The notes below the pieces were generated by a model. That model made no database searches and was not told the origin of the DNA. It saw nothing but the letters and a program-made list of their open reading frames with translations. The translations under genes were made by a program, and so were the position numbers. Shown piece by piece: positions 20,852-58,020 of a DNA stretch of 64,000 nucleotides. The stretch comes from a virus (taxonomy: Duplodnaviria > Caudoviricetes): IMG/VR virus record IMGVR_UViG_3300028887_000102, positions 16,595 to 80,594 of that record. One strand, given 5' to 3'. How positions within the stretch are numbered: position 1 is the stretch's first letter; each line of letters begins with the position of its first letter.

Positions 20852-20885
20852 TTAAAAAAATATTTAAAATTTTTACAAAATTCTC

Positions 20886-20914
20886 TTGACATCTCTTTGA
20901 TATTTAGTTATATT
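20886..20914 (+). promoter_or_regulatory. Sigma70-type promoter, copy 3
   Basis: TTGACA-tctctttgatatttagt-TATATT. Confidence 0.85.
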
Positions 20915-31219: not shown

Positions 31220-31248
31220 AATATAACTAAATATCACAAAGATGTCAA
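31220..31248 (-). promoter_or_regulatory. Sigma70-type promoter, copy 4 (minus strand)
   Basis: Reverse complement reads TTGACA-tctttgtgatatttagt-TATATT. Confidence 0.85.
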
Positions 31249-31316
31249 GATATTTTTGTAAAAATATTTAATTAGACATTCCCGAAAAAAAAAATCAATT
31301 ATTTTTACGAGACTAC

Positions 31317-34649: not shown

Positions 34650-35849
34650 ATGATGTTGAAGGCATATAAATATCGGATATACCCGACAAAGACTCAAGAA
34701 GTGCTTTTAGTTAAGCATTTCGGTTGCACCAGATACATCTATAATTATGGTCTTGAACGGAAAATAAAGTCTTACGCAGAAACAAAGAAAAGCCTTTCCA
34801 GATTCACGATTCAATCGGATTTGCCGAAGTTGAAGAAAGCCGAAGAAACAAAGTGGCTTGCAGAAGTAAACTCACTTTCGCTACAAGTGGCGTTGCTTAA
34901 TCTCGATATGGCATTCACTAGGTTCTTCAAGGAAAAGAAAGGCTTCCCCAAGTTCAAATCCAAGCACGACCACAACCAATCATTTCAAGTTCCGCAGAAT
35001 ACAACAGTCGATTACGAATGTAAACGGGTGTATATTCCAAAATTCAAGGAAGGAATCAAGTGTAAGTTTGGCAGACAATTTAGCGGAAAGATTAAGACAA
35101 GTACAGTAAGTAGAACCCCAACAGGAAAGTATTACATATCCATTCTGGTAGAAACCAATGATACCATTCCTAGCAAAGCACCGATAGACGAGAACAAAGC
35201 GGTCGGTGTGGACTTGGGCATCAAGACGTTTGCTACCTTGAGCGATGGTACTGAAATACAGAACCCCAAGAACCTAAAGAAATCCTTGAAACGATTAAAA
35301 CGGTTGCAAAGGTCTATTTCCCGAAAAATCAAAGGTAGCAACTCACGGAAGAACACCGTCAAGTTGCTTGCCCGACAATATGAGAAAGTGACCAATCGCA
35401 GAAAGGATTTCTTGCACAAGACAAGCAAGTGGTTGATTGACCACTACGATACTATTTGCCTTGAAACGCTTTCTGCCAAGAATATGATGCGGAATCATAA
35501 ACTTGCACAAGCACTGTCCGATATAAGCATAGGCACGTTCAATGCCTATATGGACTACAAAGCGGAGTGGTATGGTAAGAACATAATCCGCATAGGTCGG
35601 TTCGAGCCATCTAGCAAGATGTGTTCTTGTGGTCACATATACAAGGAACTGACCCTAAAGGATAGGGTATGGACTTGTCCTTGTTGTGGTGCTATCAACA
35701 AAAGGGATTTGTTGGCCGCTAACAACATAAAGAAGTTTGCATTTAAGCAAAACAATACGGCCCGGACGACCGGAATTTACGCCGTGGAAACAATGAACCC
35801 CACTAGGGGAGCAGCCACGGAAACCCACACATCTTTAGTGCGTGGGTAG
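34650..35849 (+). CDS. tnpB: RNA-guided endonuclease TnpB
   Basis: KAYKYRIYPT HTH; GVDLGIK (RuvC-I), ICLETL (RuvC-II), CSCG...CPCCG zinc finger, RDLLAANNI (RuvC-III). Confidence 0.95.
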   Translation: MMLKAYKYRIYPTKTQEVLLVKHFGCTRYIYNYGLERKIKSYAETKKSLSRFTIQSDLPKLKKAEETKWLAEVNSLSLQVALLNLDMAFTRFFKEKKGFPKFKSKHDHNQSFQVPQNTTVDYECKRVYIPKFKEGIKCKFGRQFSGKIKTSTVSRTPTGKYYISILVETNDTIPSKAPIDENKAVGVDLGIKTFATLSDGTEIQNPKNLKKSLKRLKRLQRSISRKIKGSNSRKNTVKLLARQYEKVTNRRKDFLHKTSKWLIDHYDTICLETLSAKNMMRNHKLAQALSDISIGTFNAYMDYKAEWYGKNIIRIGRFEPSSKMCSCGHIYKELTLKDRVWTCPCCGAINKRDLLAANNIKKFAFKQNNTARTTGIYAVETMNPTRGAATETHTSLVRG

Positions 35850-38001: not shown

Positions 38002-38538
38002 ATGCAGAACGATGAAATCCGGGAAATTCTACCTACCCAGATAACGGAATCAACCGATGTGGCATTCTTACGAACCGTCCGTGAGTATTTGGATGGTCTT
38101 GTCCAAGCGGCAAAGGACAAGGATATTACCGAGCATCTTACGGAATATCGCCCGACGTATGAGGGTAAGTTTATTTTGACCCTTGGAAAGATTTATACCA
38201 AGGCATCATTCGTGAATAACCCGAATGACATCACAATCGCAAAGATTCATAGTGTGGATTATGTTTTGTGTGGGGCATTAAAGTGTCACGCAACCATCTT
38301 CAATATCAAATATAAAGATGATGACAGCCACCGTGCCGCAGGGTTGAACACTACTAATTTTGATAGTGTTTCTATTCGGGCTTATAATCATACCGGGTAT
38401 AGTGTTGAATTGGTAGATAAACCGATATTCTTGACACAAGAACAAGTTCAAACTTATGTGGATGATGCAACGAAACGATGCCGTTTTAATGGCAGATGGT
38501 TTCTTGAAGAAACTGGAATATGGAAGAAGACCGTATGA
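38002..38538 (+). CDS. Hypothetical protein
   Basis: AAGGA RBS before MQNDEIRE. Confidence 0.65.
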   Translation: MQNDEIREILPTQITESTDVAFLRTVREYLDGLVQAAKDKDITEHLTEYRPTYEGKFILTLGKIYTKASFVNNPNDITIAKIHSVDYVLCGALKCHATIFNIKYKDDDSHRAAGLNTTNFDSVSIRAYNHTGYSVELVDKPIFLTQEQVQTYVDDATKRCRFNGRWFLEETGIWKKTV

Positions 38539-38656
38539 AGTGGACTTGGGATGACATAATCATATTTCCGTTGATTGTTCTTGCTGCTATTTTTAATGGT
38601 ATCTGCGATGCTTGGAATCGTATTAGTGGATTCTTTTACCATTTACGGCATCGGAG

Positions 38657-38887
38657 ATGATGATGTGGCACGTGGTAGAAAAAGATGGCTTACCCACGAA
38701 ACCCGGAAACTATGTTGTTGCCTATTGGGATAGTTGTTTTGGTCTCAAGTTCGGTAAACGAGTTTGGAATAACGATAAACAACGATGGTCTATTGAAGTT
38801 CCGCACAAAAAAGTTCTTGCCTACTTTTCGATAGCGGATTTGCAGAGAACTTGTAGAATCGCCTTGAATATGGAGATTGACAAATGA
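38657..38887 (+). CDS. Hypothetical protein
   Basis: MWHVVEKDGLPTKPGNYVV, a typical small phage beta domain. Confidence 0.6.
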   Translation: MMMWHVVEKDGLPTKPGNYVVAYWDSCFGLKFGKRVWNNDKQRWSIEVPHKKVLAYFSIADLQRTCRIALNMEIDK

Positions 38888-39040
38888 TATACAAGATTGA
38901 ATTGAACATTGATTCTAATAAACTTACGGATGCCGAAGTGAATGCTTTGGATGCCATCTTGGATAAGGCTATTCCTGAAATTGAGAAAGTATGCAAGTTG
39001 AAATCCGTTTCCGTAAACTCTATGCTACACTGGAGCAAAG

Positions 39041-39232
39041 ATGAAGATATTACTTGAATTACCCGATGACTTTAAGGAACATTATGACTTTGACAAGTTC
39101 AAGGATTCTCTTGGCAGAGTTTCTTGTGATTTGAAAGAACACGAAGTTCTTATGTCCGGCAATTATGAACAAGAACTTATGGATGCTCTTTACAAGGCAT
39201 TCCCTAATTCAAAGGAGATGAAAGATGGCTGA
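39041..39232 (+). CDS. Hypothetical protein
   Basis: GGAG RBS. Confidence 0.6.
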   Translation: MKILLELPDDFKEHYDFDKFKDSLGRVSCDLKEHEVLMSGNYEQELMDALYKAFPNSKEMKDG

Positions 39233-39395
39233 TTCAATTCCGTTGCCTAAAGATGATTTCGGTAATATCGCAGTTGCTTGTATTACTTGTGGTAATCCTA
39301 TTCGTATTCGTGGTACAAGAGTGTTTCCTATATGCAGAGATTGTATTGCAATGTTGAGAGATATTATTGCCGAAAGGAAAAATAAGACCGAATGA
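39225..39395 (+). CDS. Zinc-finger microprotein
   Basis: VACITCGNP...PICRDCI; overlaps both neighbours. Confidence 0.55.
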   Translation: MADSIPLPKDDFGNIAVACITCGNPIRIRGTRVFPICRDCIAMLRDIIAERKNKTE

Positions 39396-39646
39396 AAAAG
39401 TGTGACTATTGTCAATCGGGTAAATCCTTGTATCATAGTGGTGGTTGGTTTGACTCCGTTGATGTTGATATTAGGGATGGAGACCAGTTGCGATTTTCGT
39501 ACCCGGATGATGAGTGCGAAGATTATTATAGCATCACGATTGATATTAAGTTTTGCCCGATGTGTGGGAGACCACTTAAACCGGAAAACATAAAACATCG
39601 CATACACCTTAAACCATCGGATTACATTGAGCATAGTGGGAGATAG
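39392..39646 (+). CDS. CxxC...FCPMCGR zinc-ribbon protein 1
   Basis: MKKCDYC...IDIKFCPMCGRPL. Confidence 0.7.
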   Translation: MKKCDYCQSGKSLYHSGGWFDSVDVDIRDGDQLRFSYPDDECEDYYSITIDIKFCPMCGRPLKPENIKHRIHLKPSDYIEHSGR

Positions 39647-39647
39647 T

Positions 39648-39857
39648 ATGTGCCAATACTGCGAATTGAATAATCACGGAATGGGTAAGCCCCTAGCAAC
39701 TAATAACAAGGGTAATTTTAAATATCCCCTTGTTGATTTGTGGCGTGACAATGAAACAAGGGATAATAAGATTGTGCTTGTTGTCCATTATGATGAAGAA
39801 GAACCCCTTACTATCGGTATCAAATTTTGTCCGATGTGTGGCAGACCTTTGGAGTAA
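39648..39857 (+). CDS. CxxC...FCPMCGR zinc-ribbon protein 2
   Basis: MCQYC...IGIKFCPMCGRPL. Confidence 0.7.
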   Translation: MCQYCELNNHGMGKPLATNNKGNFKYPLVDLWRDNETRDNKIVLVVHYDEEEPLTIGIKFCPMCGRPLE

Positions 39858-39860
39858 TGT

Positions 39861-40070
39861 ATGTGTTGCTTCTGCGATGGTACAACATCAATGCATTCCG
39901 TCCGGGGCTATGATATTAGTCCTAGAGTAGTTAAGACGGATGCTTGGGCTAGTGCTAGTGGCTGGTGCATCGAGTTTGAGACACCCGATGATTCGGGGTG
40001 GACTACTACCCAAATTGAGATTACTAATTGTCCTATGTGCGGAAGAAAATTAGGAGAGCTCGATGTCTAA
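39861..40070 (+). CDS. CxxC...CPMCGR zinc-ribbon protein 3
   Basis: MCCFC...IEITNCPMCGRKL. Confidence 0.7.
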   Translation: MCCFCDGTTSMHSVRGYDISPRVVKTDAWASASGWCIEFETPDDSGWTTTQIEITNCPMCGRKLGELDV

Positions 40071-40296
40071 TTATTGTATTCGGTTTCAAGACATTTTTGG
40101 GAAAATAAAGAATAGGTGTATCTACAATGCCGTGGATGAAAATGATGCTATCGCAAAGTTTAATGCAGACCCCCGAAAGGATATGGCTTCCATTATCGTG
40201 GTTTCCCCACTTAAACCGATAGACATTGACGAGTGGCATAACGCAGAGATTACGAATAAGACATATATGAAAGGTTTGATTAGGAGACACGAATGA
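40063..40296 (+). CDS. Hypothetical protein
   Basis: GGAG RBS; overlaps neighbours. Confidence 0.6.
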   Translation: MSNYCIRFQDIFGKIKNRCIYNAVDENDAIAKFNADPRKDMASIIVVSPLKPIDIDEWHNAEITNKTYMKGLIRRHE

Positions 40297-40544
40297 GTTC
40301 TTATGATGACATTTTGCATTGGGTTGTAAACTATTTTGTTGATGAAACTATGACTAGCCCCGAATGTCTAGGCAAGAATACTACCTTATCTGAATTAGGT
40401 CGTGATGCGTTTGTGGATAGGGTATTGCTGGTGGTAGCCATAGAAAGTGAGTACGATGTGATTATTAACGATGACGAACGAGATTCGTGGGAAATATTAG
40501 ACGATGTAGCAAAAACAATTTTCAAAAAGGAACATAAGGTATGA
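40293..40544 (+). CDS. Acyl carrier protein-like protein lacking the phosphopantetheine serine
   Basis: TLSELGRDAFVDRVLLVVAIESEYDVIINDDE aligns with ACP [27 protein letters not shown]. Confidence 0.65.
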   Translation: MSSYDDILHWVVNYFVDETMTSPECLGKNTTLSELGRDAFVDRVLLVVAIESEYDVIINDDERDSWEILDDVAKTIFKKEHKV

Positions 40545-41743
40545 TAGAAATTAAAGGTAAATTCAACGTGGCAAAGGTTTTTACCGATAACCTTGAATCC
40601 GAAGCCTATAAGCAAATCTTGAACTTGATGAACCAAAAATTTGCGGAGGGTTCAAAGTTTGCTATTATGCCCGATGCCCATGCAGGGGTTGGGTGTGTTA
40701 TCGGTTTGACGATGAAACTTGTAGATAAGGTTGTTCCAAACCTTGTAGGCGTGGACATTGGATGCGGTATGTTGGTCTTGAAGATTGACAAGTCGTTTAA
40801 AATGGATTTGCCGAAAATGGATAAGATTTGGCATCAAGAAATTCCATCGGGTATGAACCATCGTACCAAGAAGCATCGTTTCGCAGATACCGTGCCACTC
40901 GAAGATTTGGTCACACCGGTTAATGCCGATAAGCTCCGTTTGTCGGTGGGTTCTCTTGGTAGTGGAAACCATTTCGGAGAAGTGGATGTGGATGACGATG
41001 GCAACTATTACATTGTAATCCATTCGGGGTCCAGACATCTTGGTATTGAAGTTTGCAAGTTCCACCAGAACCGAGCGATTGAATACCATCGGGGCAATCG
41101 TGACATTGAAAAGGACATCATCTTGCGATGCAAAGCCGAGGGCAGGGTCAAGGATATTGAAAAGGAACTCCGTGATTTCCACGAAGCGAAGACCCCGATT
41201 CCTAATGAGTTGGCATACCTTGAGGGTTCGTATATGCAAGATTACTTGGCAGATATGCGAATCGCTCAAGATTTCGCCATCAAGAATCGTGAAGCGATGA
41301 TGCAAGTTGTCATTGATTCTATGGGTATTAAGAACCACCATATCCTTGGTAAATTCTGCACTATCCATAACTACATTGACTTGGATGCTATGGTTCTTCG
41401 CAAGGGTTCTATTTCCCTGCAACAAGACCAAATGGCGATTATCCCGATGAATATGCGCGATGGCTCTTTGATTGTCCGTGGAAAGGGAAACCCCGAATGG
41501 AATTTCTCTGGTCCGCATGGAGCAGGGCGTTTGATGTCTCGTTCAAAGGCAAAGGAAACTTTGACGATGGAAGATTTCAAGTCTTCAATGTCCGGCATCT
41601 ACACGACTTGTGTAAGCACCAAGACTCTTGACGAATCCCCAATGGCTTATAAGCCTATGGATGAAATCGTTGAGAACATCCGGGACTCCGCAGACATTGT
41701 ACGGACTATCAAGCCCATCTATAACTTTAAGGCAGAAGAATAA
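40541..41743 (+). CDS. rtcB: RtcB-family RNA ligase
   Basis: MPDAHAG.GCVIG, GVDIGCGM, GSLGSGNHF.E, HSGSR, HNY, PHGAGR, DESPMAYK. Confidence 0.95.
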   Translation: MIEIKGKFNVAKVFTDNLESEAYKQILNLMNQKFAEGSKFAIMPDAHAGVGCVIGLTMKLVDKVVPNLVGVDIGCGMLVLKIDKSFKMDLPKMDKIWHQEIPSGMNHRTKKHRFADTVPLEDLVTPVNADKLRLSVGSLGSGNHFGEVDVDDDGNYYIVIHSGSRHLGIEVCKFHQNRAIEYHRGNRDIEKDIILRCKAEGRVKDIEKELRDFHEAKTPIPNELAYLEGSYMQDYLADMRIAQDFAIKNREAMMQVVIDSMGIKNHHILGKFCTIHNYIDLDAMVLRKGSISLQQDQMAIIPMNMRDGSLIVRGKGNPEWNFSGPHGAGRLMSRSKAKETLTMEDFKSSMSGIYTTCVSTKTLDESPMAYKPMDEIVENIRDSADIVRTIKPIYNFKAEE

Positions 41744-41769
41744 AAATTAAAAATTTTTACAAAATTGTA

Positions 41770-41798
41770 TTGACATCTCCTTGATAATTAGTTATATT
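41770..41798 (+). promoter_or_regulatory. Sigma70-type promoter, copy 6
   Basis: TTGACA-tctccttgataattagt-TATATT. Confidence 0.85.
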
Positions 41799-41834
41799 AC
41801 TAGCGAGTATAACACACAAGGAGATGTTTTTTTT

Positions 41835-43956: not shown

Positions 43957-44277
43957 ATGCCCGATGAAAATAGTAAATGGACTTTTGATGCTCTTGCCAA
44001 TAATTATCCTAATCCTAGTTTTTGGGGGCGTCACAAGTGGTACAATGCAGATGATGTTCAATGCTGGATTTTGCATTTGAAAGAAGTCCATGATAAGGAA
44101 ATGAATGAACTCCGTGAACAAATGCAGAATGAATCTAAAAAGATTCAAATGGATGTTTTTACTGCAATCCAGACAATAGAAGACCAAATCTCGTCTGGGA
44201 TTCAACCGGTCATTAGAAATTTAATTAACACATATCTTAACAATATCAAAGAAGGTATTAACAATGCCGACAAATAA
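43957..44277 (+). CDS. Hypothetical protein
   Basis: AAGGAG RBS. Confidence 0.65.
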   Translation: MPDENSKWTFDALANNYPNPSFWGRHKWYNADDVQCWILHLKEVHDKEMNELREQMQNESKKIQMDVFTAIQTIEDQISSGIQPVIRNLINTYLNNIKEGINNADK

Positions 44278-45166
44278 TAAAGTAGTTGTTCAACTTTTCT
44301 CCGGTGTTCACGGCAACGAACATTGTGCCGTACTTTCGAGCATCCGTGCAAAGGAAATCATCAAGGATGACTCTATGGACATTCGCCTTATGGATGGGGT
44401 TAATGTTCCCGGTTTGCGTGACAATGTTCGTGAAGTAGCCGACCACTCCAAGGATGTAATTACAGACCTTAATCGTAAGTTTACGATTTATAAGGAACCG
44501 GATAAGATTGATGTCATCACAAAACATATTGAAGACACCATTGAACTTGCAGACATCGTTATTGATATTCACAATTCCCCCGCTTGTATGAATTGTGTTC
44601 TTATTTCTAACAACGGATATGCCCCTGCATATATCCAGCATTGCATTAGCCATAATCTTTCGTACCTTTTATGGGAATCCGATACGGACACCATCAAGAA
44701 GTATTCTCAAGATATGAACAAGGTGGGCATTACGATTGAGCTTGGTGGTATGGGTGGCTCCGTGCATCAAAAGCATCTTATTACCGAGCAGACTCAATTC
44801 ATCATTGATGTAATTGAATCTTTCCAGGGTATGTCAAAGGATGTTCTCAAGAAAGTCTTTACACCAACAAAGCCGGGTTCGTTTGAACCTAGTTATCGGT
44901 TCTTTGATTCCAGTTTTTTGTGGCAACCGATTTTCGCACATTCCGAAGGTGTCATTGAATACCTTTATGACGTGGGCGAGTCTATTGATAAGGGTGCGGT
45001 TATTTGCCGTATTCATAGCAAGAAAGATGGTCACGCACCTTATACCGAAGTGGTTTCCCCTTGTACCGGTAAACTCGCAGAAATTTCGGATGCCTTGTAT
45101 GTAAGGGCTGCCGATTGCTTCTGCCATATCCAACCGGATATTCGTTGTAAGGATAAAGAATGTTAG
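44264..45166 (+). CDS. M14 peptidase-fold zinc hydrolase (succinylglutamate desuccinylase/aspartoacylase family)
   Basis: SGVHGNE (HxxE), DLNRKF, IDIHNS, ITIELGG; C-terminal SPCTGKL barrel-sandwich. Confidence 0.8.
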   Translation: MPTNNKVVVQLFSGVHGNEHCAVLSSIRAKEIIKDDSMDIRLMDGVNVPGLRDNVREVADHSKDVITDLNRKFTIYKEPDKIDVITKHIEDTIELADIVIDIHNSPACMNCVLISNNGYAPAYIQHCISHNLSYLLWESDTDTIKKYSQDMNKVGITIELGGMGGSVHQKHLITEQTQFIIDVIESFQGMSKDVLKKVFTPTKPGSFEPSYRFFDSSFLWQPIFAHSEGVIEYLYDVGESIDKGAVICRIHSKKDGHAPYTEVVSPCTGKLAEISDALYVRAADCFCHIQPDIRCKDKEC

Positions 45167-57951: not shown

Positions 57952-57991
57952 TTAGTTCATTGAAGCCACTTATAATTTTTATAAAATTGTC

Positions 57992-58020
57992 TTGACATCC
58001 TTGTGATATTTAGTTATATT
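57992..58020 (+). promoter_or_regulatory. Sigma70-type promoter, copy 10
   Basis: TTGACA-tccttgtgatatttagt-TATATT. Confidence 0.85.

Follow-up and report, generated by a model that had tools for sequence, protein, structure and literature searches.

An acidic 83-residue protein encoded at positions 40293-40544 of the window, the 64,000-nucleotide stretch of phage DNA analysed here, is a true but divergent homologue of acyl carrier protein (ACP) in which the attachment serine has been lost, and its gene is under purifying selection. We propose, tentatively and with slightly less than even confidence, that the protein is a former phage ACP that no longer depends on a cofactor and acts by docking through helix II, the likeliest partner being a host protein that recognizes ACP.

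The source record is an 80.6-kb contig from an uncultured virus that CheckV estimates to be ~37% complete. Since the contig encodes a tail sheath, the source virus is probably a large myovirus. The acidic, ACP-like ORF that an earlier note had picked out from the DNA sequence is present as described, with a computed pI of 4.28 and 19 Asp and Glu residues against 8 Lys and Arg. ATGA overlaps occur at both ends of the gene, with the stop codon of a 77-aa ORF upstream and, as the earlier note had also reported, with the start codon of rtcB downstream. The features of this region are collected in Table 1.

Table 1. Features in and around the serine-less ACP-like gene, in window coordinates.
Feature	Position	Strand	Description and basis
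Serine-less ACP-fold gene	40293..40544	+	83 aa, stop codon within coordinates; ORF, homology, fold, dN/dS 0.11
Shine-Dalgarno AGGAG	40282..40286	+	7 nt before the ATG of the ACP-like gene; read from sequence
Codons Ala39-Phe40	40407..40412	+	Either may correspond to the lost phosphopantetheine serine; N-terminal end of helix II
Helix II, residues 40-54	40410..40454	+	Equivalent of the ACP recognition helix; model and clade alignment
77-aa ORF	40063..40296	+	No assigned function; ATGA overlap with the start of the ACP-like gene
rtcB	40541..41743	+	400 aa; ATGA-overlapped downstream neighbour, context only; Pfam RtcB 3.6e-61, phrog_1075 8e-132
Promoter-like repeat TTGACA-17-TATATT	41770..41798	+	Directly 3' of rtcB

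Homology and fold

Searches with the single sequence gave sub-threshold matches to ACP families. In Pfam these were PP-binding_2 (PF14573; E 0.019, 15.7 bits against a cut-off of 32) and PP-binding (PF00550; E 0.099, 13.4 bits against 20.8); in PHROGs the match was phrog_5934, 'acyl carrier protein', at 3e-4, which we counted as sub-threshold; and in NCBIfam six ACP models scored ~21 bits against cut-offs of 66-106 (TIGR00517, 20.9 against 70.45). The comparison with PP-binding that the earlier note had recommended was extended by a profile of six close homologues, which reached ACPs in the PDB with 2lol as the best match (E 1e-6). The 60 PDB matches listed for this profile were ACPs or carrier proteins only, with the exception of one chain named 'alpha/beta hydrolase fold protein'. 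A phmmer search of 1.8 billion representatives returned two clade members followed by the serine-bearing PF00550 proteins P0008 (1.8e-5) and P0009 (9.8e-4), and hhalign matched the serine-less clade to serine-bearing ACPs with 97.7% probability and an E value of 1.7e-12.

The AlphaFold2 model of the protein (pLDDT 92.8, pTM 0.82) contains the four ACP helices, at residues 4-19, 40-54, 60-64 and 69-82, including the short helix III. The structural comparison suggested in the earlier note likewise returned an ACP-like fold: all Foldseek matches listed from the PDB were ACPs, carrier domains or complexes of an ACP or carrier, at TM values of 0.70-0.85, with ACP structures at 0.73-0.85. A structure search of BFVD returned many phage ACPs. 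The profile search, phmmer, hhalign, the AlphaFold2 model and Foldseek all concur, and the homology to ACP is therefore secure.

Loss of the attachment serine

The clade to which the protein belongs comprises 7 sequences in 5.8 billion clusters, 6 of them full length (82-85 aa), with 52-94% identity; a search of IMG/VR with the clade alignment yielded no relatives beyond the window's own record. The attachment-site serine is found in none of the six full-length members in either candidate column (39 or 40), and around the N-terminal end of helix II the clade alignment shows no other conserved serine. The nearest outgroups, P0008, P0009, P0013 and the ACP of Brevundimonas phage Bajun, keep DS[LI]D. 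In place of the motif G-x-D-S-L-D the clade has G-R-[DS]-x-[FY]-V-D, longer by one residue.

The earlier note described this change as replacement of the serine by alanine. The loss of the serine stands; the alanine depends on the alignment, because the one-residue insertion can be placed differently. HMMER aligns Ala39 opposite the serine of a PDB ACP, whereas MAFFT and hhalign place Phe40 there, with the insertion before it. Ser36 of E. coli ACP is the first residue of helix II, and DSSP assigns the start of helix II in the model to residue 40. Column 39 varies across the six full-length members (A/E/Q/D/D/D) and column 40 is always aromatic (F/F/Y/Y/Y/Y). On these grounds of alignment and model we prefer to describe the change as 'Ser to Phe/Tyr plus loop insertion'. 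Conservation among phage homologues, which the earlier note had proposed to check, accordingly divides: loss of the serine is common to all close homologues, and the alanine itself gives way to Glu, Gln or Asp. Judged from the six full-length sequences, the canonical site cannot be modified by phosphopantetheine under either alignment, in agreement with what had been claimed.

The helix II docking surface

Within helix II, V41, D42, L45, L46, A49, I50, E51 and S52 are invariant in the clade, and the equivalents of Asp38, Ala45, Glu47, Glu49 and Asp51 of ACP helix II are retained. The equivalent of Glu41 is Leu45 and that of Glu48 is Ser52, both invariant across the clade; the serine-bearing sequences in the alignment have Glu at the Glu41 position in all but P0015, which has Asp. 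Because of these two replacements the protein, as far as its aligned sequence tells, is not a faithful copy of the ACP surface, and for the same reason the canonical enzymes of fatty acid synthesis (FAS) or AcpS may not be its target. Together, Phe/Tyr40 and Leu45 suggest, in sequence and model, a docking face more hydrophobic than that of canonical ACP.

Proposed function

The reading that we favour begins with a derivative of a phage ACP that would have stopped being a carrier when the serine was lost and one residue was gained just before helix II. The four-helix fold and most of the acidic residues of the docking helix are retained, with Phe/Tyr40 and Leu45 standing where ACPs have Ser36 and Glu41. 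With the serine lost, and hence no lipid carriage, the role would be one of protein binding, and the action would most likely be purely protein-protein docking through helix II, in which the aromatic residue could stand in for the missing phosphopantetheine arm. The most probable class of target would be a host protein that normally recognizes ACP and that is blocked or hijacked by a permanent, non-acylatable look-alike. From its sequence the protein is plausible as a decoy that titrates ACP-binding proteins, as the earlier note had put forward, and a host ACP client is our leading guess for the target over a phage protein.

Two precedents for such docking have been described. The part of PMC4736557 that cites Keating et al. 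1995 states that an obligate apo-ACP (Ser-to-Ala) suppresses growth and that apo-ACP inhibits glycerol-3-phosphate acyltransferase. In the mitochondrial ACP (mACP) of Plasmodium, Phe replaces Ser; the protein has no cofactor and serves as a binding subunit of Isd11-Nfs1, and the Phe is needed for Isd11 binding and for growth (doi 10.1101/2021.04.13.439690). The same source reports that serine-less ACPs are almost confined to apicomplexan mitochondria. Our searches of the literature on phage ACP-like proteins, on ACP together with RtcB in phage and on ACPs without the conserved serine found no description of the present protein; one preprint goes only as far as predicting that a phage ACP binds host FabZ.

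The Plasmodium case raises an alternative that we consider rather unlikely, namely that the protein is not a host inhibitor and instead serves as an adaptor or stabilizing subunit for a phage protein other than RtcB, as the cofactor-free mACP does on Isd11-Nfs1. In its favour, the clade has a conserved aromatic residue at the position of the serine, as Plasmodium has Phe113, and its docking helix departs from the face of canonical ACP. Furthermore, the 77-aa ORF keeps its place beside the ACP-like gene in three sequence-divergent contexts, the window, L002 and L004, although in L004 the neighbour is the C-terminus of the ORF; L062, L063 and L067 show the same adjacency. Against it, L004 and the window share a single recombination tract of 83% identity (40215-40376) that contains the adjacency, which may then reflect linkage and not function; the sequences flanking the gene in L061 are unrelated on either side, and no candidate partner family was recognized. 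The 77-aa protein has two homologue clusters only, both from close relatives, and so provides no co-occurrence signal.

The shared tract was also of interest in itself. Positions 1-162 of L004 match the window with 83% DNA identity. The match covers the end of the 77-aa ORF together with codons 1-28 of the ACP-like gene, and beyond it the similarity drops. This edge looks like a recombination breakpoint inside the ACP-like gene, a sign of mosaic cassette exchange.

Selection on the ACP-like gene

Comparison of the ACP-like gene with the 73%-identical copy in L002 gave a dN/dS of 0.11 at a dS of 1.65; in the same comparison the upstream 77-aa ORF gave 0.15 and rtcB 0.06. Against the 52%-identical copy in L004 the value was 0.31-0.37, synonymous sites being close to saturated. 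We conclude that purifying selection acts on the gene. The earlier note had allowed that homologues might keep the serine and that this copy might simply be decaying; we reject a decaying copy on the dN/dS of 0.11, and the serine is missing throughout the close homologues. We consider it highly improbable that the gene is the relic of a phage ACP gene that no longer has a function and is on its way to being lost. The family is rare and a deletion variant, L065, is missing the first 25 codons, but synonymous change is near saturation at this low dN/dS, the seven copies contain no frameshifts or stops, the fold is predicted with confidence and the Shine-Dalgarno sequence is strong.

The variant is a metagenomic contig whose positions 1-1101 are 97-99% identical to window 38473-38916 and 40367-41024, with a deletion of 1,450 bp (window 38917-40366) between the two. 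As a result, the beginning of ORF 38884 reads in frame into the ACP-like gene at approximately codon 26, giving a 70-aa chimera (P0006), and helix I and seven small genes are lost. L065 may represent a viable phage with this deletion, or the deletion may have arisen as an artefact of assembly; if the phage is viable, the ACP-like gene would be dispensable.

Relationship to rtcB

The ACP-like gene lies within a dense plus-strand array of small genes, without assigned functions, in which nearly all junctions are overlaps of 4, 8, 17 or 20 nt. The last gene of the array is rtcB, immediately before the promoter-like repeat. We read this repeat as the start of the next transcription unit, in which case the ACP-like gene and rtcB would end the long small-gene array. 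The layout looks like that of an early or host-takeover region, putatively assigned. Conserved RtcB columns are present (Cys75 and His144/161/276/326), and from its sequence the enzyme looks catalytically intact.

The order of 77-aa ORF, ACP-like gene and rtcB is kept only in close relatives that are fully syntenic (L002, L003, L062, L063, L064 and L067-L069). The ACP-like gene of L004 (52% identical) has unrelated small ORFs downstream and not rtcB, and that of L061 (79% identical) is likewise not followed by rtcB. From the other direction, an ACP-like ORF occurs within 2.5 kb of rtcB in 0 of 53 other viral RtcB loci from IMG/VR, whose RtcB identities range from 36 to 95%; the HMM used on these loci detected every positive control, the canonical Bajun ACP among them. 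No ACP-like gene occurs anywhere in the five records whose RtcBs are closest (69-95% identity), of which three are at least 90% complete and one is 85% complete.

The earlier note had taken the ATGA overlap as a hint that the ACP-like gene and rtcB form a counter-defence pair, a suggestion that these counts do not bear out. The overlap is not specific because such overlaps are routine throughout the array. In relatives RtcB evidently functions in the absence of the ACP-like protein, and a dedicated pairing is unlikely. A dedicated partner of RtcB, acting as an archease-like cofactor or as half of a tRNA-repair counter-defence pair, would agree with the overlap and with the gene order that the relatives keep; since those relatives are all syntenic over the whole region, since L004 and L061 have the ACP-like gene without a neighbouring rtcB, and in view of the 53 loci and five records above, we consider it marginally less probable even than a relic. 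The 53 viral contigs with RtcB homologues (L008-L060), many of them 150-425 kb, have highly variable neighbours upstream of rtcB, and RtcB seems to be common cargo of large uncultured phages.

Carrier function

The neighbours of the homologues are proteins of no recognized function, an HNH endonuclease, an exonuclease-like protein, a helicase and an adenylyltransferase-like protein; no acyl-handling enzyme was found beside any homologue. The 80.6-kb contig contains neither a phosphopantetheinyl transferase (PPTase, PF01648) nor a second PP-binding gene, and at its estimated completeness a phage PPTase or a partner may lie outside it. Least probable of the readings considered is that the protein is still a carrier through a non-canonical residue or non-canonical chemistry: Ser22 and Ser52 are invariant in the clade, P0004 and P0005 have Ser two residues before the aromatic position, and a transferase could be encoded elsewhere in an incomplete genome, but conserved serines are absent from the start of helix II and its immediate surroundings, the contig yielded no PPTase, and enzymes for adenylation, acyl transfer or condensation were not found near any homologue.

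One lead was dropped. At a distance of 1.3 kb from the L004 homologue is a CTP_transf_like gene, whose family, PF01467, has phosphopantetheine adenylyltransferase among its members. The gene is missing from the window's contig, and its weaker second PHROG match is to phrog_3462 (2.9e-6), nicotinamide-nucleotide adenylyltransferase.

Comparison with known systems

The phage protein resembles bacterial AcpP (PF00550, TIGR00517), and especially its apo form, in its four-helix fold, size, acidity and detectable homology and in the helix II equivalents that it retains. It differs from AcpP in the absent attachment serine, in the one-residue insertion before helix II, in having Leu for Glu41 and Ser for Glu48, in scoring far below the curated Pfam and TIGR00517 cut-offs and in being encoded by a phage gene away from fatty-acid genes. 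The nearest relatives are serine-bearing phage ACPs at 29-36% identity (P0008, P0009, P0013, Bajun BAJUN_00790 and phrog_5934). P0008, P0009 and P0013 share with the window protein the Trp66 column and a D-D-x(4)-W motif after helix II; Bajun has Ala at the Trp66 column. Unlike the window clade, the serine-bearing phage ACPs still have DS[LI]D and pass the PF00550 threshold.

Two serine-less ACP homologues offer further parallels. Plasmodium falciparum mACP is, like the phage protein, an ACP homologue without the serine that is retained under selection (doi 10.1101/2021.04.13.439690), and by hhalign and MAFFT, with HMMER in disagreement, the phage clade matches its Phe113 with an aromatic residue at the serine position. 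The two are unrelated in lineage and in setting, a eukaryotic organelle in one case and a phage in the other, and no LYR-type partner was recognized for the phage protein. The 3M_097 protein of the Ackermannviridae Serratia phage vB_SmaA_3M, annotated as 'putative acyl carrier protein', is likewise a small ACP homologue that a phage encodes as a separate protein and that lacks the serine. In contrast to the window protein, to which it is 20% identical, it reads DELD, with Glu in place of the serine, has no insertion and retains the Glu41 equivalent, and it is missing from the tblastn results of the window protein at E values up to 1. Because of these differences, the sequences are most simply explained by independent loss of the serine in the window clade and in Ackermannviridae.

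The separate serine-less phage lineages suggest a wider reuse of the ACP fold as a cofactor-free binding module. A broader claim, which is possible though we would not yet lean on it, is that phages have repeatedly and independently made ACPs into cofactor-free docking proteins, and that in the present case an aromatic residue replaces the arm and a constitutive mimic blocks or commandeers an ACP-dependent process of the host. If true, this would define a new class of host-takeover protein, and candidate processes would be lipid synthesis, the stringent response, and an ACP-dependent defence or chromosome-maintenance factor. ACP is among the most connected of bacterial proteins, and a phage ACP that can never be loaded and is nevertheless under selection would be a probe of which ACP interaction the phage targets. 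For annotation, such genes should not be named 'acyl carrier protein' or tallied as auxiliary genes of lipid metabolism.

Other features of the window

A 6-kb megablast query against the phage collection gave zero matches. The promoter-like element after rtcB belongs to an intergenic repeat of ~50 nt containing TTGACA-17-TATATT, which occurs at window 41745-41800, at about 20866-20914, at 31220-31273 (minus strand) and at 57974-58020, with partial copies near 2936, 31328, 47497, 51292 and 54944. The repeat is probably the phage's own (early?) promoter, marking the starts of transcription units.

Upstream of the 77-aa ORF, three tandem small ORFs (39392-39646, 39627-39857 and 39861-40070) each end in a zinc-ribbon-like C-P-M-C-G-R-[PK]-L. 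They appear to be paralogues, and their family matches are weak and to zinc ribbons only. Farther upstream, the small-gene region carries an inserted gene for a 399-aa IS200/IS605-type TnpB-like transposase (34650-35849; phrog_506, E 3e-121). Downstream of rtcB, positions 44264-45166 encode a 300-aa protein with a succinylglutamate desuccinylase/aspartoacylase catalytic domain (PF24827, E 2.9e-11), an enzyme unusual for a phage that is kept in L002 and L067.
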